Assembly (NCBI RefSeq): GCF_052049935.1
Contig: NZ_JBNGZA010000002.1
Coordinates: 19,977 to 83,976 of the forward strand
Direction of reading: 5' to 3'
Source of the DNA: Candidatus Pelagibacter sp.
GTDB taxonomy: Bacteria > Pseudomonadota > Alphaproteobacteria > Pelagibacterales > Pelagibacteraceae
DNA: 64,000 nucleotides
Part shown: positions 11,296 to 20,003 of the stretch, in pieces
Position numbering within the stretch: position 1 is the first letter of the stretch
How the letters are laid out: every line of letters begins with the position of its first letter
The notes under the pieces: generated by a model
Told to the model about the DNA's origin: nothing
Databases searched by the model: none
The model's input: the letters and a program-made list of their open reading frames with translations, nothing else
Translations under genes and position numbers: made by a program

Positions 11296-11387
11296 TGGCG
11301 GAGAGAGAGGGATTCGAACCCTCGGTACAAGTTTCCTCGCACGGTCATTTAGCAAACGACTGGTTTCAGCCTCTCACCCATCTCTCC
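11296..11387 (-). tRNA. tRNA-Ser (GCT), CCA encoded
   Basis: Minus strand GGAGAGA...TCTCTCC-G-CCA acceptor stem, anticodon arm GTCGT-TTGCTAA-ATGAC, long variable arm, GGTTCGAATCC T-arm. Confidence 0.97.
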
Positions 11388-11407
11388 ACAAGAAAAATCA
11401 ATACTTT

Positions 11408-11436
11408 TGATTGTATTGAATATTCAATATTAATAA
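11408..11436 (+). promoter_or_regulatory. Candidate sigma70 promoter of soxBDAG: TTGATT-17-TAATAA with a 16-bp palindrome in the spacer
   Basis: -35 at 11408-11413, TATTGAATATTCAATA at 11414-11429, -10 at 11431-11436. Confidence 0.5.
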
Positions 11437-11455
11437 AGTAATTATTCTAAAAATT

Positions 11456-12709
11456 ATGAAAAACAAGTACTCAATATTTTCACTAGTAAAAAATGCTTTT
11501 TCCTATCATGAAAATTGGGAGAAAGCTTGGAAAGATCCAGAGCCTAAAAAAGAATATGACGCTGTTATTGTAGGTGGTGGTGGTCATGGTCTAGCTACTG
11601 CTTATTACTTAGCGAAAAAACACGATATGAAAAATATTGCAGTTGTAGAAAAAGGTTGGATTGGAGGTGGTAATACTGGAAGAAATACTACCATTATTAG
11701 ATCTAACTATCTTTGGGATGCTAGTGCTGGCTTGTATGATCATGCTTTAAAAATTTGGGAAGGTTTGTCTCAAGAACTAAACTATAATGTAATGTTTAGT
11801 CAACGAGGAGTAATGAATCTAGCTCATAATCTTCAAGATGTGAGAGATTTAAAAAGAAGAACTCATGCTAATAGACTAAATGGTATTGATGCAGTTTACT
11901 TAAGTACAGAAGAAGTTAAAAAGTTTTGTCCAATAATTAATACCTCTCCTGATATAAGATATCCGGTACTTGGTGGAACACTACAAAGGAGAGCTGGTAC
12001 AGCTAGACACGATGCTGTTGCTTGGGGATATGCGAGAGGTGCAGATGAAATGGGAGTGGACATTATTCAAAATTGTGAAGTGAAAGGTATAAAAAGAGAT
12101 GGAGATACTGTTGAAGGTTTAGAAACAACAAAAGGTTTTATAAAAACAAAAAAAATTGGAGTAGTAGCCGCAGGTCATTCCAGTGTTATTGCAAATATGG
12201 CTGGTCTTAGATTGCCCTTAGAAAGTAAACCATTACAAGCTTTAGTTTCTGAACCTGTTAAACCAATAATAGATACTGTAGTTATGTCTAATGCAGTTCA
12301 TGCTTATGTAAGTCAATCAGACAAAGGTGAATTAGTTATCGGTGCTGGTACTGATGATTATGTTTCTTATTCACAAAAAGGTAGTCACGATATTGTGGAA
12401 GGAACTTTAAATGCAATCCTAGAGCTTTACCCTATATTTAGTAGAATGAGAATGTTAAGACAATGGGGTGGAATTGTAGATATTTGTCCTGATGCAAGCC
12501 CTATAATTAGTAAAACTTCAATTAAAGGATTATACTTTAACTGTGGATGGGGAACTGGTGGATTTAAAGCTACACCCGGTTCAGGTGATTTATTTGCTCA
12601 TACAATCGCAAATGATGAGCCCCATAAATTAAATGCTGCATTTAATATCAATAGATTTGTTAGTGGTGATCTTGTTGATGAACACGGAGCAGCTGCAGTA
12701 GCACACTAA
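11456..12709 (+). CDS. soxB: Heterotetrameric sarcosine oxidase family, beta subunit
   Basis: [44 protein letters not shown]-terminal EHGAAAVAH. Confidence 0.95.
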
Positions 12710-12984
12710 TGTTTATAATTAATTGTCCGTTCTGTGGTGAAAGAGAACAAAGTGAATTTAAAGCTGGCGGGGAAGCTCACATAGTAAGACCCAAACAACC
12801 TACTGAACTAAGTGATGATGAATGGGCAGAATATTTATTCATGAGAAAAAATATTAAAGGTGTTCAGTTTGAAAGATGGAACCATGCTCATGGATGTAGA
12901 AAATGGTTTAATATGGTTAGAGATACATCGAATGATCAGATAAAAGCTGTTTATAAAATGGGTGAAAAACCCCCTATCGAATAA
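12709..12984 (+). CDS. soxD: Sarcosine oxidase family, delta subunit
   Basis: CPFCG...ERWNHAHGC zinc ligands, FNMVRDT. Confidence 0.95.
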   Translation: MFIINCPFCGEREQSEFKAGGEAHIVRPKQPTELSDDEWAEYLFMRKNIKGVQFERWNHAHGCRKWFNMVRDTSNDQIKAVYKMGEKPPIE

Positions 12985-12993
12985 ATAATATTT

Positions 12994-15900
12994 ATGTCAA
13001 AAAATCTAAGAGTTAAATCTAGTTCGTATATTGATGAAACAACAAGAATTTCATTTAAGTTTAATGGTAAAAAATTATTTGGTTTCAAAGGTGATACACT
13101 CGCATCAGCGTTACTTGCAAATGATATACATTTAGTTGCAAGAAGTTTTAAATATCATAGACCAAGAGGAATAATGACGTCAGGTTCAGAAGAGCCTAAT
13201 GCAATAGTCCAATTACATGATAATTCTTCAAGAACTGAACCTAATGTAAGAGCAACTGAGATTGAGCTTTACGAGGGGTTGGAAGCTTCTAGTCAAAATT
13301 GTTGGCCTAGTGTTAATTTTGACATAGGTGGTATTAATAATTTTTTATCCCCTCTTCTTCCAGCTGGTTTTTATTACAAAACTTTTATGTGGCCTGCTAG
13401 CTTTTGGGAAAAATATGAATATTTTATTCGTAAATCAGCTGGTCTTGGCAAGTCTCCAACTGAAGCAGATCCTGACATTTATGATCATAAATATATCCAC
13501 TGTGATGTTCTTGTAATTGGCGGAGGTATTTCAGGAATAATTGCTGCAAAGTCCGCTGCAAAAAATGGTTTAAAAACTTTAATTGTTGATGAAAAGCCAA
13601 ATTTAGGTGGAACAACAATTTATCAAAATAATGATCATTTTAAAATAAATGATGAAAATTCTTCAAAGTGGTTACAGAACGAAATTGATAGTTTAAAAAA
13701 TTTCGAAAATTTAGAAGTAAAAACAAGAACTAGTGTTGCTGCATATCATGGTTACAATTTTGTTTTAGCAAGAGAAAATTTAACTGATCATATTGAAATC
13801 TCAAAAAGAGAAAACAAAGTAAGACAAAGATTACTAAAAATTAGAGCAAAGAAAGTTATTACAGCAACTGGTTCTATTGAAAGACCACTTATATTTAATA
13901 ATAATGACAGACCTGGAATATTGCTTTCATCAGCAATTAAAAAATATGCTGATTTTTATGGAGTGAAAAGTGGTGAGGAAATTGTTTTATTCACTAACAA
14001 TGATACTGCTTATGAAACTGCTCTTTCATTAAGTGATAAGGGTATCAAGGTTAAAGCAATTGTAGATATAAGAGATGCTAATGAAAATAGATTAATAAAA
14101 TCAATAAAAGATTTAAACATTAAAATTTATAATAACCATACTGTTGTAGATACAAAAGGTCATAAAAGAATTAATAAAGTTTCTATAATGGAACTGTCTA
14201 AGGATGGCACTTCAGTTGTTGGAAATAAAATAGATATAAATTGTGATTGTCTTGGAATGGCTGGTGGATGGACACCTGCGGTACATTTGTTTACACAATC
14301 TGGTGGAAAATTAAAATTTAGAGATAGCGAAAATATATTTGTTCCTAACCAATATAGTTCTGACCAAATCAGTGTGGGAGCTTGTAATGGTGATTTTGAA
14401 TTGAACGATATACTTTCTATATTACCTGATCAAATAAATAAGTATCTTGGTATTGATGAGGAAAGTTTTAAAAGTGTTCAAGTTATTTCTTCGAAAGATA
14501 ATAACTATAGAAATATATGGTTGCTACCATCTGATAAAATTTTAGGAAAAACGAAACCTTTTGTGGACTATCAAAATGATGCTACAGCAAAAGATATAAA
14601 ATTAGCTTTAAGAGAAGGATTTAGATCTATTGAACATGTAAAAAGATATACAACAACTGGTATGGGTACTGATCAGGGTAAACTTGGAAATATGCATGCG
14701 CTTGGAATAATTGCAGAAACAGCAAAAGTTCAAATGGGAGAATTAGGAACAACTACTTTTAGACCACCCTATACTCCATTAACATTTGGAACAATTGTTG
14801 GAAGAAATGTTGGTGAATATTTTGATATTTTTAGAAAAACACCAATGCATGATTGGCATGTTAAACACAAAGCTGAATTTGAAAATGTAGGACAATGGAA
14901 AAGAGCTTGGTATTACCCTAAGAACAATGAAGATATGCATCAAGCTGTCCAAAGAGAAAGTAAAGCTGCAAGAGAAAGTGCTGGTATTTTAGATGCATCC
15001 ACATTAGGTAAAATTGATATACAAGGAACAGACGCTTCAGAATTTTTAAATCGTGTCTATACAAATGCATGGTCTAAACTTGGAATTGGAAAATGTAGAT
15101 ATGGCTTAATGCTAAATGAAGATGGTATGGTATATGACGATGGAGTTACAACTCGTCTAGGAGAAAATCATTATATAATGACTACAACAACGGGTGGCGC
15201 TGCAACTGTTCTTGGTAAGTTAGAAGATTATCTACAAACTGAATGGCCTGAACTTGATGTTTACCTTACTTCAGTTACTGATCATTATGCAACAGCAAGT
15301 GTTTGTGGACCAAACAGTAAAAAAATTCTTTCAAAATTAATTCCAGATTTAGATTTGTCAGATGAAAATTTCCCGCACATGTCATTTAAAGATACAACTA
15401 TTGGAAAGATAAAATGTAGAGTTATGAGAATTAGTTTTACTGGTGAACATAGTTATGAAATCAATGTTCAGGCAAATTATGGAAAGTCTATTTGGAAAAA
15501 ATGCATGGAAGCTGGGAAAGAATTTAATATTACTCCTTATGGAACAGAAACTATGCATTTATTAAGAGCTGAAAAGGGATTTATAATTGTTGGTCAAGAC
15601 ACAGATGCAACGATGACACCTATCGATTTACAAATGGATTGGATAGTCAGTAAGAAAAAATATGATTTTATTGGAAAAAGATCGTTATACAGATCAGATA
15701 CAATAAGAGAAGATAGAAAACAATTAGTTGGTCTTTTAACAGAAAATCCTAACGAAATTTTAGAAGAAGGTGCTCAAATTGTTGCTGAAACTAACAAACA
15801 ACCTGTAGAAATGTTAGGACATGTTACTTCAAGTTATTTCAGTCCTAATCTTAATAAATCAATAGCACTTGGAGTTGTTAGAGGCGGAAAAAACATGTTA

Positions 15901-15999
15901 GGTCAAAAATTATTTGTGCCAATGGAAAATAAAATAATTAATGTGACTGTTGCTGATCCAGTTTTTTTAGATAAAGAAAATAAAAGATTAAATGCTTAG
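12994..15999 (+). CDS. soxA: Sarcosine oxidase family, alpha subunit
   Basis: GDTLASALLAN, RSFKYHRPRG, HVKRYTTTGMGTDQGK, C-terminal GcvT-like folate domain (DASTLGKIDIQG, DDG, RISFTGEHSYEI). Confidence 0.95.
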   Translation: MSKNLRVKSSSYIDETTRISFKFNGKKLFGFKGDTLASALLANDIHLVARSFKYHRPRGIMTSGSEEPNAIVQLHDNSSRTEPNVRATEIELYEGLEASSQNCWPSVNFDIGGINNFLSPLLPAGFYYKTFMWPASFWEKYEYFIRKSAGLGKSPTEADPDIYDHKYIHCDVLVIGGGISGIIAAKSAAKNGLKTLIVDEKPNLGGTTIYQNNDHFKINDENSSKWLQNEIDSLKNFENLEVKTRTSVAAYHGYNFVLARENLTDHIEISKRENKVRQRLLKIRAKKVITATGSIERPLIFNNNDRPGILLSSAIKKYADFYGVKSGEEIVLFTNNDTAYETALSLSDKGIKVKAIVDIRDANENRLIKSIKDLNIKIYNNHTVVDTKGHKRINKVSIMELSKDGTSVVGNKIDINCDCLGMAGGWTPAVHLFTQSGGKLKFRDSENIFVPNQYSSDQISVGACNGDFELNDILSILPDQINKYLGIDEESFKSVQVISSKDNNYRNIWLLPSDKILGKTKPFVDYQNDATAKDIKLALREGFRSIEHVKRYTTTGMGTDQGKLGNMHALGIIAETAKVQMGELGTTTFRPPYTPLTFGTIVGRNVGEYFDIFRKTPMHDWHVKHKAEFENVGQWKRAWYYPKNNEDMHQAVQRESKAARESAGILDASTLGKIDIQGTDASEFLNRVYTNAWSKLGIGKCRYGLMLNEDGMVYDDGVTTRLGENHYIMTTTTGGAATVLGKLEDYLQTEWPELDVYLTSVTDHYATASVCGPNSKKILSKLIPDLDLSDENFPHMSFKDTTIGKIKCRVMRISFTGEHSYEINVQANYGKSIWKKCMEAGKEFNITPYGTETMHLLRAEKGFIIVGQDTDATMTPIDLQMDWIVSKKKYDFIGKRSLYRSDTIREDRKQLVGLLTENPNEILEEGAQIVAETNKQPVEMLGHVTSSYFSPNLNKSIALGVVRGGKNMLGQKLFVPMENKIINVTVADPVFLDKENKRLNA

Positions 16000-16555
16000 T
16001 TATAATAATCCCATAAAAGAAACAAAAGAATATTCTGGTTTAAAAATTCAAGAATTAAAACCAATAATGAAACTTAATTTAAGAGGAAAAAAAAGAGAAT
16101 TTTTGTCTGCAGTTGGAAAATCTCTCAATATGCTTTTGCCTACAGAAAGCAATACATCAACCTCGAGTGAAAATTATACAGCACTTTGGCTAAGTCCAGA
16201 TGAGTGGATGCTATATTCAAATAATGAAATGAATGAAAATGATAATAGTTATGAAGTTGAAAATGAACTCATCAATAATGTAAGTAAAGTTAATTTAGGA
16301 GCTATAATTGATGTAACAGATCATTTTGTGCTTCTTAAATTAAGTGGAGAGAAAATTTATGAATTATTTTCAACAGGTTCACCATTTAATTTTAATGACT
16401 TTCAAAACAAGAACGGTGCTGTAACACAAACATTATTAGCTAAAATAGATGTTATTATTCACAATATAGACAAAAAAAATGTAAATCTATTTGTGCGAAG
16501 ATCTTTCTCTGAACATCTCTTCTCTTGGATTAATGATAGTGCGTCAAGATTGTAA
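15992..16555 (+). CDS. soxG: Sarcosine oxidase family, gamma subunit
   Basis: LWLSPDEW, AIIDVTD, FVRRSFSEHL; fourth gene of BDAG cluster. Confidence 0.92.
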   Translation: MLSYNNPIKETKEYSGLKIQELKPIMKLNLRGKKREFLSAVGKSLNMLLPTESNTSTSSENYTALWLSPDEWMLYSNNEMNENDNSYEVENELINNVSKVNLGAIIDVTDHFVLLKLSGEKIYELFSTGSPFNFNDFQNKNGAVTQTLLAKIDVIIHNIDKKNVNLFVRRSFSEHLFSWINDSASRL

Positions 16556-16615
16556 GCTTTAGCGGCAAGTTGGCAATAATAATTATAATTTAAATGGTTA
16601 TATCTTCTATTTATT

Positions 16616-17383
16616 ATGAAAAAAATATTATCTGTTGTACTTTTTGTACTTATCTCTTTATCTGCAAATGCGGAATCAAATTTAAATAAAATTCTTTCTT
16701 CAGGAGAATTAAGAGTTGGAACTACAGGAGATTGGGACCCAATGACTGTAAAAGATCCAGCAACTAATAAGTACAAAGGTTTTGATATTGATGTAATGAA
16801 CGAATTAGCAAAAGATATGGGTGTTAAAGTAAAATTTGTTCCAGCTGAGTGGAAAACTATAGTTTCTGGAATAACATCAAACAGATATGATATTTCAACA
16901 AGTGTAACAAAAACTCCCAAAAGAGCTGAAGTTGCAGGTTTTACAGAAACTTATTATAAGTATGGAACTGTACCTCTAGTTCTTAAAAAAAATCTAAACA
17001 AATTTTCAACTTGGGATTCACTAAATAATGAAAGTGTTACAATAGCTACAACTCTAGGAACATCCCAAGAAGAAAAAGCAAAAGAGTTTTTTCCAAAATC
17101 TAAACTGAATTCTGTAGAAGCTCCTGCAAGAGATTTTCAAGAAGTTTTAGCTGGCAGAGCTGATGGTAACATAACAAGTTCAACAGAAGCAAATAAGCTT
17201 GTTATCAAATATCCACAATTAGCAATAGTTCCTGATGGAGAAAAAAATCCAGCATTTTTAGCTATGATGGTTTCTAAAGGTGACGATGAATGGAGAAACT
17301 ATGTAAACAACTGGATTAATAAAAAAAAATCATCTGGTTTTTTTACAAAGTTATTAGCTAAATATAATTTGAAAAGTTTATAA
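16616..17383 (+). CDS. Family-3 (polar amino acid) ABC solute-binding protein of the cyclohexadienyl-dehydratase-like clade
   Basis: Signal peptide, [30 protein letters not shown]. Confidence 0.85.
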
Positions 17384-17423
17384 TCAATTAGTAATTAATT
17401 ATTAATACTTTATAACTCTAAGA

Positions 17424-18155
17424 GTGAAAAATTTATTTTTTTTACTTTTAGGTTTATTCTTAACTTCATGTAGTAAGAGTGAGCTGAATTGGTTAGTTCT
17501 ATCACCAAATAATTTAGAAGGATTAACAAATTTAAAATTTTTATTAAGTGGTTTAACTACAACTATTTTTATTTCTGTAGTTTCAATAATCATTTCAATT
17601 ATTCTAGGATTAATTATTGCAATACCTTCATTAGCAAAAAATAAATTTCTTACTTATATTAATATTGGTTATGTTGAGATTGTAAGAGCTATTCCACTTT
17701 TGGTTTTAATTTTATGGATATATTATGGATTGCCAATAATGACCGGGATAAGTTTTAGTCCATTTGTTTCTGGAATTATTGCTTTATCAATAAGTGAAAG
17801 TGCTTTTCAAGCTGAGATATTTAGAGCTGGTATAAATTCAATTAAAAAAGCACAGTGGGAAGCTGGTAGTTCTCTTGGGTTGAATTTTTTTAGAAAATTA
17901 AGATTAGTTATTCTACCACAAGCCATTAAAAATATTTTACCCGCAATTGGAAATCAATTCGTCTATGTGTTGAAGATGTCATCATTAGTTTCAATTATTG
18001 GAATTGGAGATTTAACAAGAAAAGCAAATGAACTAGTGGTTACTACTTATAGACCACTAGAAATTTACACTTTCTTAATCTTTGAATACCTAATTTTAAT
18101 ACTAATTGTTTCTTATTTTGTCAGAAAATTAGAAAAAAAATTAAAAACTGATTAA
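17424..18155 (+). CDS. Polar amino acid ABC transporter permease (HisM/GlnP type)
   Basis: YVEIVRAIPLLV, EAA-type AEIFRAGINSIKKAQWEAGSSLG, LPQAIKNILP; GTG start. Confidence 0.92.
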   Translation: MKNLFFLLLGLFLTSCSKSELNWLVLSPNNLEGLTNLKFLLSGLTTTIFISVVSIIISIILGLIIAIPSLAKNKFLTYINIGYVEIVRAIPLLVLILWIYYGLPIMTGISFSPFVSGIIALSISESAFQAEIFRAGINSIKKAQWEAGSSLGLNFFRKLRLVILPQAIKNILPAIGNQFVYVLKMSSLVSIIGIGDLTRKANELVVTTYRPLEIYTFLIFEYLILILIVSYFVRKLEKKLKTD

Positions 18156-18670
18156 TTTTTATTTTTTTTTCTCCACTCCCATGGATTTATAAAAGGTCCT
18201 TGCCAAACACCTAATTTATTTTCTTTAGCTTGTTTTTCTTGAGCTACAAACTTTTTTGAATATTTTAAATAAGCTACTGCATATCCATTTTTTACCATCC
18301 ATGAATTTACATTTAAATTTTTATAAAAACATTCACCAATAAGTCTTCCATATCTATCTTTATTTGAAATTAAGCATGAAATTTTTTTGTTGGAAACTTT
18401 ATCTCTTAGTTTCTCTGTTGAAATAACACCGCAGTTATATTTTTTATATAAATTGTAAAAAGAAAAAGAAATGAATGGTTTTTTGCAATTTTGCTTGACT
18501 TCTGGTGCATCGATCCCAAATAATCTTATTTTATTTCCATTTATCTTTATAGTATCTCCATCAGTAACTGATGGTACTCCTTCAATTTTTTCTATTGAAC
18601 TTGCTTTTGTTGAAAGCAAAAAAATAAAGAAACTAAAAACTAAAAAGTTTTTTATTTTGTTTAAAAACAT
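18152..18670 (-). CDS. Thermonuclease (SNase-like) family protein, probably secreted
   Basis: Signal peptide, TDGDT, RLFGIDAPE, DRYGR, MVKNGYA, KLGVWQG...PWEWR. Confidence 0.9.
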   Translation of the reverse strand: MFLNKIKNFLVFSFFIFLLSTKASSIEKIEGVPSVTDGDTIKINGNKIRLFGIDAPEVKQNCKKPFISFSFYNLYKKYNCGVISTEKLRDKVSNKKISCLISNKDRYGRLIGECFYKNLNVNSWMVKNGYAVAYLKYSKKFVAQEKQAKENKLGVWQGPFINPWEWRKKNKN

Positions 18671-20003
18671 TGTTCAAAAAATATCCAATAAAGATTAATA
18701 CAGCAAAACCCATTATCCAATTAGTAGCCATAATAGTATAAAAAATATCTTCATAGTTTCCGCCTCTAATATTAATAACATACCACAAACATAAAAAGGG
18801 AAATGCTGTTAATCGTAAAATACTCAAATATAAACTGTAAATCGGTTTTTTGACTGCTTGAAAGACTGCTGTAGTTATAAAAAATACCGGATAAATTGGA
18901 CCAATTAATGCAGCCACTTGTAAATAAATAATACCATGTTTAATCGCTTCTTCATTGTCAGTAAATAAAGAAACTAAATATTCTGCACCAAAAAAAATAA
19001 TTAAACCTGCACAAATCATAAAAGATGATCCAAAAAATAAGGCTTTTTTATATAATTCTCGTATACGTTCAAATTTTTTTGCACCAAAATTTTGTCCACC
19101 TATTGATAGGACAGCTGTATTCAGTCCAATAACTGGTAATAAAAAAACTTGTTCAATTCTTAAAGCTGCTCCATAACCAGCAGCTGCAAGTTCGCCAAAT
19201 TGTCCAATAAAATATAATACGTTAAAAATACCAACACCAATAAACAACATGCTAAACATAATTGGCAGTGATTGTTCTAACAATTCTTTAAGAAGTTTTA
19301 AATTAGGAACAAAACATTCAATTTTAAGAAATTCTCTTAATTTACAAGAATTAACTTTATAAGCTAAATATAAAGTTCCAATTGTTTGAGAAATTACTGT
19401 TGCGATTGCTAAACCTGAAATACCAAAACCTGGAATAAAAGCATATCCCCAAATAAATAGAGGATTTAAAAATATATTAAGAAAGAAACTAAATATTAAA
19501 ACATTTCTATAACTCTTTGTATCACCTTGAGCATTAAGAGTTCCATTGAGAGATATTTGTATCAAAACAATAAATGTTCCATAAAAAATTATATCCAAAT
19601 ATTCTCTAGTAAGAATTATACTTTGTTGATCTGAACCCATTACAGATAACAAAAAATTTGAGGAATTTAGACCAAACAAAGTTACTATCACTGATACGAT
19701 AACAGCGAAAATTACTGATTGTGCAACTAATAAAGAAGCCTTCCTAATTTTTTTTTCTCCTAAAAGATTTCCAATGCAAGCATTCGTTGCAGCGCCTATA
19801 CCAACGCCAACTGCAATAATCACAAAATAAATAGGAAATGATTTTGCTATTGCACCAATTGCTTCAGCTGATATTTTTCCTGCAAACCAAGTATCAACAA
19901 GATTATAAAAAGTTTGAAATAAAGATCCTGTACTTGCTGGTATAGTAACTTTTCTAAGTAATTCCCATATAGGGTCCTTAGTAAGTTTGATTGATTTAGA
20001 CAA
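18633..20003 (-). CDS. MATE family efflux transporter
   Basis: PASTGSLFQTFYNLVDTWFAG, GDTK, G..GLAIATVISQ, duplicated 6-TM architecture. Confidence 0.92.
   Translation of the reverse strand: MSKSIKLTKDPIWELLRKVTIPASTGSLFQTFYNLVDTWFAGKISAEAIGAIAKSFPIYFVIIAVGVGIGAATNACIGNLLGEKKIRKASLLVAQSVIFAVIVSVIVTLFGLNSSNFLLSVMGSDQQSIILTREYLDIIFYGTFIVLIQISLNGTLNAQGDTKSYRNVLIFSFFLNIFLNPLFIWGYAFIPGFGISGLAIATVISQTIGTLYLAYKVNSCKLREFLKIECFVPNLKLLKELLEQSLPIMFSMLFIGVGIFNVLYFIGQFGELAAAGYGAALRIEQVFLLPVIGLNTAVLSIGGQNFGAKKFERIRELYKKALFFGSSFMICAGLIIFFGAEYLVSLFTDNEEAIKHGIIYLQVAALIGPIYPVFFITTAVFQAVKKPIYSLYLSILRLTAFPFLCLWYVINIRGGNYEDIFYTIMATNWIMGFAVLIFIGYFLNNVFKQNKKLFSF

Follow-up and report, generated by a model that had tools for sequence, protein, structure and literature searches.

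An orphan solute-binding protein and its permease behind a sarcosine oxidase-type cluster in Candidatus Pelagibacter: a possible facultative link

Introduction

SAR11 bacteria are responsible for a large share of the uptake of dissolved organic matter in the surface ocean. The subject of this work is a six-gene locus in Candidatus Pelagibacter sp. (contig NZ_JBNGZA010000002.1, positions 19,977 to 83,976 of the forward strand; this whole stretch of 64,000 nucleotides is referred to as the window, and all positions are counted from its first letter). There, soxBDAG, the genes of a heterotetrameric sarcosine oxidase-type enzyme, are followed on the same strand by a two-gene cassette that encodes an orphan periplasmic solute-binding protein and a polar-amino-acid-type permease. 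We tentatively favor facultative coupling of the two modules: in Pelagibacter, the cassette would feed Sox with its substrate or a precursor of it, without being a dedicated partner of the enzyme. Within the genus, the cassette was found only in genomes that also carry this sox cluster, and nearly always directly behind it. The genes themselves and the orphan status of the binding protein have been published already. What is new is that the cassette is accessory, nested within sox-bearing genomes in one genus and independent of Sox elsewhere, and that a gene cluster of Burkholderiales takes the binding-protein family beyond the ocean, contrary to the marine-only statement of a 2017 preprint (bioRxiv 10.1101/157495).

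The closest described system is that of Pelagibacter ubique HTCC1062. In this strain, soxBDAG corresponds to SAR11_1064-1067 and immediately precedes SAR11_1068; a paralogous cluster, soxB2D2A2G2, corresponds to SAR11_1281-1284, and the choice between sarcosine oxidase and N-methylglutamate dehydrogenase (NMGDH) was left open (Sun et al. 2011, PMC3160333). The SAR11_1068 product, Pu1068, was studied in the 2017 preprint (Clifton/Jackson study). It is not a cyclohexadienyl dehydratase by complementation, it does not bind prephenate, and it binds no amino acids, the proteinogenic ones included; its gene adjoins genes for transmembrane components of an ATP-binding cassette (ABC) transporter. A screen by differential scanning fluorimetry over ~650 conditions (Biolog PM1-5, PM9, and an in-house set) yielded only weak affinity for carboxylates and some sulfonates, and nothing bound better than the sulfobetaine NDSB-221 (Kd 0.53 mM; bioRxiv 10.1101/157495). 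In a 2024 Nature survey of all HTCC1062 binding proteins, SAR11_1068 was the sole purified protein left without a ligand, a rescreen on Biolog PM1-4 included.

Results

The locus compared with described enzymes

The window genes are orthologues of SAR11_1064-1069 of Pelagibacter ubique HTCC1062. An original prediction, made by reading the window sequence, had described soxBDAG, a binding-protein gene, and a permease gene on one strand, with gaps of 60 and 40 bp before the last two genes. This description is confirmed by the coordinates of the open reading frames (ORFs) and by family profiles (Pfam and NCBIfam). The six ORFs and the spacer between the two modules are:

11456..12709, + strand: soxB, beta subunit (FAD/FMN) of the heterotetrameric sarcosine oxidase-type enzyme (TIGR01373)
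12709..12984, + strand: soxD, delta subunit (PF04267, 127.9 bits)
12994..15999, + strand: soxA, alpha subunit, with N-terminal Fer2_4, FAD/NAD fold, SO_alpha_A3, and GcvT-type folate domain (TIGR01372)
15992..16555, + strand: soxG, gamma subunit, overlapping soxA by 8 bp (PF04268, 53 bits)
16556..16615, + strand: spacer of 60 bp between soxG and the binding-protein gene
16616..17383, + strand: SBP_bac_3 periplasmic solute-binding protein, orthologue of Pu1068/SAR11_1068 (PF00497, 106.7 bits)
17424..18155, + strand: BPD_transp_1 / HEQRo three-transmembrane (3-TM) permease, GTG start, 40 bp after the binding-protein gene (PF00528, 77.9 bits)

SoxB (TIGR01373, 712.8 bits against a cut-off of 529), SoxD (TIGR01374, 122.2 against 116.5), and SoxA (TIGR01372, 1361.8 against 1164) all pass their NCBIfam models. 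SoxG passes the Pfam SoxG model at 53 bits and scores 69.5 bits with TIGR01375, below the cut-off of 143.95. The folate domain of SoxA matches GCV_T (PF01571, residues 618-883, 236.4 bits) and PF08669 (63.5 bits). Likeness to the crystallized heterotetrameric sarcosine oxidases (TSOX) of Stenotrophomonas maltophilia (2GAG) and Corynebacterium sp. U-96 (1VRQ) extends over the B-D-A-G gene order, the folate (GcvT) domain of the alpha chain, a conserved beta-subunit histidine at chain position 173 (...ARHDAV... in the window, ...AKHDHV... in 2GAG_B), and a complete Cys3His zinc site in SoxD (Cys6, Cys9, His59, and Cys63, aligned to 1VRQ_D). In TSOX, His173 carries the covalent FMN. The window enzyme differs in that the first ~148 residues of SoxA (Fer2_4, 2Fe-2S-like) fall outside the alignment to the crystallized alpha chains, and in its divergent gamma subunit, the one below the NCBIfam cut-off.

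The NMGDH subunits MgdABCD (Methylocella, Methyloversatilis, and Ruegeria pomeroyi SPO1585-1588) form a homologous four-subunit architecture, are encoded in the same gene order, and also act on a CH3-NH-CH(R)-COOH substrate. However, gmaS, mgsABC, and other methylamine-pathway genes were not found among the neighbors of the window cluster, and the second SAR11 paralogue is the better candidate for such an enzyme. This paralogue (Sox2) is present in the window's own genome on contig C1, with 58% identity to the window cluster in SoxB and 48% in SoxA. Compared with the crystallized sarcosine oxidases, the window SoxB scores 588 bits and its paralogue 475 (2GAG_B), and the window SoxA scores 787 bits and its paralogue 688 (2GAG_A). 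The genes of the paralogue (soxB2D2A2G2, C1:95000-114000) adjoin those for formate-tetrahydrofolate ligase (fhs), a class-I glutamine amidotransferase, and a 443-amino-acid FMO/Tmm-like monooxygenase, surroundings that look like a methylated-amine island or methylamine-pathway context. Because it is closer to the crystallized enzymes and retains both His173 and the Cys3His site, and because the methylamine-type context belongs to the paralogue, the window cluster (Sox1) is, judged from its sequence, more likely the genuine sarcosine oxidase of the two. The caution in the original prediction that subunit annotation does not fix the substrate was nevertheless well placed, given two SAR11 paralogues and an assignment left open in PMC3160333.

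Further upstream of the paralogue are genes for an M19 dipeptidase, a 553-amino-acid protein without a Pfam match, a Rieske oxygenase, and a GcvT-like protein. A homarine (hom) operon beside this second sox cluster was considered and rejected, as the neighbors are unlike the published description (flavin reductase, HomB, peptidase, and aldehyde dehydrogenase). The draft assembly contains duplications: the second sox cluster is identical on C1:102256-106775 and C9:3-4051, and the GcvT-like gene is on both C6 and C20.

Binding protein, permease, and ATPase

The binding protein carries an N-terminal signal peptide and matches 5KKW_A at 453.9 bits (E = 9.4e-136, residues 19-255; PDB 5KKW/5WJP). 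It shares with Pu1068/SAR11_1068 (PDB 5HMT, 5KKW, and 5WJP; permease SAR11_1069) the position after soxG, the signal peptide, and the family-3 fold; nothing substantial sets the two apart, and the window protein is a copy from another strain. Its match to a true cyclohexadienyl dehydratase, PaCDT, is only 94.8 bits, and it is a non-catalytic member of the cyclohexadienyl-dehydratase-like clade. The family is small, with 90 representatives at E <= 1e-30 among 1.84 billion proteins. The weak binding of carboxylates and NDSB-221 by Pu1068 fits a ligand that combines an anion with an ammonium group.

The permease scores 95 bits with TIGR01726 (cut-off 42.2) and is GlnP/EhuC-like at 146-148 bits, its best matches being GlnP and EhuC/EhuD, at 138-148 bits; this single permease is presumably a homodimer. 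Wherever a lineage was examined, its gene accompanies that of the binding protein, and in the SAR11 loci inspected the two are always side by side. Polar-amino-acid (PAAT) ABC importers such as GlnHPQ, HisJQMP, and the ectoine system EhuABCD also combine a family-3 binding protein with a permease of the 3-TM type, but the window locus has one permease gene and no ATPase gene, and its binding protein binds no proteinogenic amino acids. The sole other family-3 binding protein of this genome (occT-like, 288 amino acids; C4:11146-13421) is followed by two permease genes and likewise has no ATPase gene, and its locus comes after a fused SAM-decarboxylase/spermidine-synthase gene.

No ABC ATPase gene was found in the locus and no ATPase of the GlnQ/HisP type in the window's draft genome, where the best matches to the EhuA/GlnQ profiles are ProV-type (176-192 bits). 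The idea that this absence is a lineage trait was rejected in favor of a draft-assembly effect, because each of eleven related genomes carries a GlnQ-type ATPase at 315-328 bits. It is the sole one in ten of them; the remaining genome, G011, has a second match of 274.5 bits. In the closed and nearly identical genome G009, the ATPase gene closes a four-gene yhdWXYZ-like operon ~100 kb from the binding-protein gene. The ATPase of the cassette is probably YhdZ of this general amino-acid transporter, the sole ATPase of its type in related closed genomes, and a shared ATPase working with a homodimeric permease would be the simplest reading. The yhdWXYZ operon with the only GlnQ-type ATPase is missing from the draft assembly and is present in the 99%-identical genomes G009 and G005.

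Distribution within Pelagibacter

The binding protein and soxG, which tells the two sox paralogues apart, served as queries against 301 Pelagibacterales genomes. The window's genus is represented by 201 genomes; 190 contain this sox cluster and 102 the binding protein. All of the latter (102/102) carry the sox cluster, and the binding protein was found in none of the 11 genomes that lack this cluster (Fisher p = 0.0003, without correction for phylogeny). Where coordinates are available for both genes, soxG is followed after 36-73 bp by the binding-protein gene, on the same strand, in 96/97 genomes, so the window arrangement is not a chance feature of one window. The spacer, 60 bp in the window, measures 36-41 bp in most relatives. 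In the single exception, G131, an opposite-strand nuclease gene separates soxG from the binding-protein gene. In G287, three in-frame stops have turned the binding-protein gene into a pseudogene (C1:76984-77655), which still lies 39 bp from soxG.

The cassette is accessory, occurring in about half of the sampled Pelagibacter genomes. Four cassette-free genomes were examined (G029, G047, G077, and G073), and no trace of the cassette was found in any. The nuclease gene directly follows soxG in three of the four, and the MATE gene there is only 39-40% identical, despite 84-93% identity in the other flanking genes. The region between soxG and the MATE gene (18152-20003 in the window) is thus a variable spot; the nuclease gene varies in position, and it is present or absent independently of the cassette.

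Sister genera and a second family

In four sister genera, the cassette genes are paired as they are in Pelagibacter. In the genomes of genus g5 that were examined, the cassette sits between the same flanks as in Pelagibacter, with the lytic transglycosylase gene (SLT) on one side and MATE-TrhO on the other, and no sox cluster is there. Unrelated genes precede the cassette: a UmuD/UmuC-like pair and two other transporters in one sister genus, recJ in a different one. The second family of the order has the binding-protein and permease genes in divergent orientation, again beside the MATE gene. The cassette is an older resident of this chromosomal site than the sox insertion, because its site is conserved outside the genus and sox is found there in one genus only. 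The g5 locus L014 has, at the position of soxBDAG (L014:5415-9433), genes for an EamA transporter, a sodium:solute symporter, and the UmuD/UmuC-like pair (Peptidase_S24 and ImpB); an error-prone polymerase cassette was unexpected in a genome so streamlined.

Orthologues in Burkholderiales

An alignment of four distant relatives was used as the query against one genome of each prokaryote species. All 80 loci returned (L030-L109) are from freshwater or soil Burkholderiales such as Polaromonas, Rhodoferax, Limnohabitans, and Rubrivivax. A binding protein of 45-52% identity is followed by a permease of 49-56% identity; the best PDB match of this binding protein is Pu1068, at 225.6 bits versus 108.6 for the true dehydratase. 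Beside the permease gene there is often a convergent gene for a GlnQ-type ATPase (318 bits). A soxB-soxD-soxA(-soxG)-like cluster divergently adjoins the binding-protein gene in 12/45 loci with enough upstream sequence, and its enzyme contains the GcvT domain. By our estimate, an adjacency to Sox would be expected by chance in roughly 1 in 1000 genomes.

The orthologous binding protein and permease, with a soxBDAG-like neighbor in about a quarter of the loci, are thus what the Burkholderiales cluster (Polaromonas, Rhodoferax, and Limnohabitans) shares with the window, whereas its own GlnQ-type ATPase and a block of creatininase-family, glutathione S-transferase (GST), HD-domain, AhpD-like, and 2-oxoglutarate (2OG) oxygenase genes set it apart. 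The only detectable relatives of the HD-domain member are the oxygenases PhnZ and TmpB, and the matches are weak (E = 7e-4 to 2e-2). Genes for a VanA-type Rieske oxygenase, from a family that includes O-demethylases, and for a DoeB-like deacylase are also often nearby. Two further distant relatives are on contigs too short for their context to be judged; on one of these, a metagenome contig, the binding-protein gene is again surrounded by part of a Rieske-oxygenase gene, a RidA gene, and a gene of the creatininase family. Overall, these enzymes suggest a nitrogen-containing, possibly N-methylated, heterocyclic or heteroatom-bearing acid as the substrate. The cluster is conserved, apparently undescribed, and partly found in isolate genomes. 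The variable neighbors include hutH; L071:7860-12900 is an example of the cluster.

Transcription and boundaries of the locus

Near-identical sequence was found in four seawater metatranscriptomes. In three of these, assembled RNA contigs cross the junction between soxG and the binding-protein gene (X2#14, 16523-16910; X3#22, 16187-16830; X4#29, 15406-16702). Contig depth in the bin of the upstream tRNA-Ser gene was 163-447, versus mostly 14-97 in neighboring bins, and the libraries are taken to be RNA-dominated because the depth of this bin is several-fold above that of nearly every other. The junction-crossing contigs fit read-through transcription, and the cassette is probably co-transcribed with sox, being read from the sox promoter as well.

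Three further features delimit the unit:

11296..11387, - strand: tRNA-Ser(GCT), upstream boundary of the sox unit (ARAGORN)
11388..11455, + strand: soxB upstream region, with a 16-bp perfect palindrome, TATTGAATATTCAATA, at 11414-11429, a possible operator
18152..18670, - strand: convergent SNase-type nuclease gene, downstream boundary, outside the system (PF00565)

In the window, the cluster is surrounded by a lytic transglycosylase, the tRNA-Ser, the transporter cassette, the nuclease, and a MATE pump. At <=1 mismatch, the genome has a single copy of the palindrome; none is present 5' of the binding-protein gene, so the palindrome gives no sign of a shared operator. Base composition in the window is ~29% G+C, and consensus scans are uninformative in such DNA: that for promoters returned fewer promoter-like sites in the locus than in shuffled sequence, and that for terminators found nothing terminator-like in the spacer that separates soxG from the cassette.

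Discussion

Facultative coupling would work as follows. The first module, soxBDAG, would encode a heterotetrameric, folate-coupled N-methyl-amino-acid oxidase that converts sarcosine to glycine and 5,10-methylene-tetrahydrofolate. The second, the two-gene cassette, would provide the periplasmic and membrane parts of a PAAT-type ABC importer, its ATPase being supplied from elsewhere, probably as YhdZ. Lying behind soxG in Pelagibacter, the cassette would be read from the sox promoter as well, and the imported solute would be a small zwitterion that bears an anionic group and a nitrogen carrying a methyl or other substituent, either a substrate of Sox or a precursor of one. The link would be facultative in that the cassette would predate the sox insertion at the site and would work without Sox in the sister genera. 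Supplying Sox is the likeliest role that we can assign to the cassette in Pelagibacter, because it is directly behind soxG and is probably read together with it. It is plausible that the two modules are functionally linked and that the ligand is N-methylated.

The original prediction, which did not identify the binding protein as the published orphan Pu1068/SAR11_1068, went further, holding that the transporter imports the very compound that this Sox complex demethylates, and it looked to co-occurrence across SAR11 for support. This claim is partly supported: the operon-like spacing in 96/97 genomes, the lack of a terminator-like site in the spacer, the junction RNA contigs, and the Burkholderiales adjacency speak for it, and within the genus the cassette never occurs without this sox cluster. 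Several observations weigh against it, and against our more modest version of coupling. First, the cassette is absent from 88/190 Pelagibacter genomes with this sox cluster. All adjacencies within the genus may trace to one ancestral insertion and would then count as one event, and short spacers are normal in streamlined genomes. The junction contigs may also have arisen from carry-over of DNA or from overlapping but separate transcripts. Second, co-occurrence fails outside the genus: 24 genomes of the four sister genera have the binding protein and no match to this soxG, and a SoxA search of seven of them (including the closed G021 and G221) found no SoxA-family gene anywhere, so that in sister genera the cassette works without any Sox enzyme. 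In the second family, a sox1-like cluster (53-55% SoxA identity) is on a different contig from the cassette. Third, the Burkholderiales SoxA is only 34-41% identical, falls below the TIGR01372 cut-off, and is equidistant from both SAR11 paralogues, and thus belongs to a different subfamily; in about three of every four loci, no sox genes are adjacent. The constant partners, present in 47/51 loci, are instead a creatininase-family amidohydrolase, a GST, a PhnZ/TmpB-like protein, and an AhpD-like protein, often with a 2OG oxygenase. These suggest a substrate more complex than a simple N-methyl amino acid, and no homologue of the accessory genes (creatininase-family, GST, HD-domain, AhpD-like, and 2OG) was found in this SAR11 genome. 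Finally, two published screens ended without a physiological ligand for Pu1068. The first of them, the screen of ~650 conditions (2018), used the Biolog PM9 plate and thus probably covered sarcosine, betaine, dimethylglycine, creatine, carnitine, and trigonelline.

These observations raise the possibility, one that we consider real if somewhat unlikely, that the arrangement is a positional coincidence. The cassette would then be an independent importer of an unrelated solute that always resides beside the MATE gene, the sox genes would have been inserted upstream of it once in the Pelagibacter ancestor, and the spacing and read-through would reflect no more than streamlining. The neighborhood of binding protein, permease, and MATE is indeed kept across both families, with sox there in only one genus; each module persists without the other, the cassette where there is no Sox enzyme and sox in the 88 genomes without the cassette; in G131, the nuclease gene has come between them; and the ligand screens, which probably covered common N-methyl osmolytes, found nothing. 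Coincidence sits poorly, however, with a second adjacency of an orthologous transporter and a Sox-like enzyme, in another orientation in Burkholderiales, at our estimated chance of ~1 in 1000 per genome, and with a cassette that is never without this sox cluster within the genus.

A stronger form of coupling can also be framed from the Burkholderiales data, although we consider it doubtful. Here, the cassette would be a dedicated high-affinity importer for an N-methylated zwitterion, and Sox-type enzymes would recover its N-methyl group in the form of methylene-tetrahydrofolate. The full, as yet undescribed pathway of breakdown would be that of the Burkholderiales cluster, with its creatininase-like hydrolase, PhnZ/TmpB-like HD-domain, 2OG, and Rieske oxygenases, and Sox-like oxidase, and streamlined SAR11 would have kept only uptake and the last demethylation. 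Candidate ligands would be homarine, N-methyltaurine, N-methylated 2-aminoethylphosphonates, or a creatinine- or N-methylhydantoin-like heterocycle.

It is improbable, in our judgment, that the window cluster is itself an NMGDH (mgdABCD) and that the solute taken up through the cassette is N-methylglutamate or one of its precursors, for example homarine (N-methylpicolinate). The attraction of this idea is that sox and mgd clusters are often confused. Homarine breakdown in marine bacteria passes through N-methylglutamate and NMGDH, and a hom operon has been reported in SAR11 with no hom transporter described (2026 homarine paper, PMC13236597). Moreover, homarine is absent from the main text of the 2024 screen paper, and NDSB-221, which Pu1068 binds weakly, combines an N-methyl-piperidinium with an anionic group. 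Nevertheless, SoxA and SoxB of the window are clearly closer to the crystallized sarcosine oxidases than the paralogue is, it is the paralogue that has the methylamine-type context, and no hom-like genes were recognized near either sox cluster. Least probable by far is that the binding-protein homologue serves not in transport but as a periplasmic enzyme (cyclohexadienyl dehydratase) or a sensor: one source does name a close relative "cyclohexadienyl dehydratase", and that enzyme did evolve from within the clade of this protein, but Pu1068 has neither dehydratase activity nor prephenate binding (bioRxiv 10.1101/157495), and the gene has a permease gene as its partner in SAR11, in the sister family, and in the majority of the longer loci of Burkholderiales, which often have an adjacent ATPase gene as well.

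Returning to facultative coupling, genome comparisons name no ligand, but they narrow the search and make an open question somewhat more testable. The Burkholderiales cluster offers both enzymes and partly cultivable hosts with which the ligand may be found. Naming the ligand of SAR11_1068 would settle what the ancestor of an enzyme-evolution model, cyclohexadienyl dehydratase, once bound, and it would add a compound to the diet of the most abundant heterotroph in the ocean.

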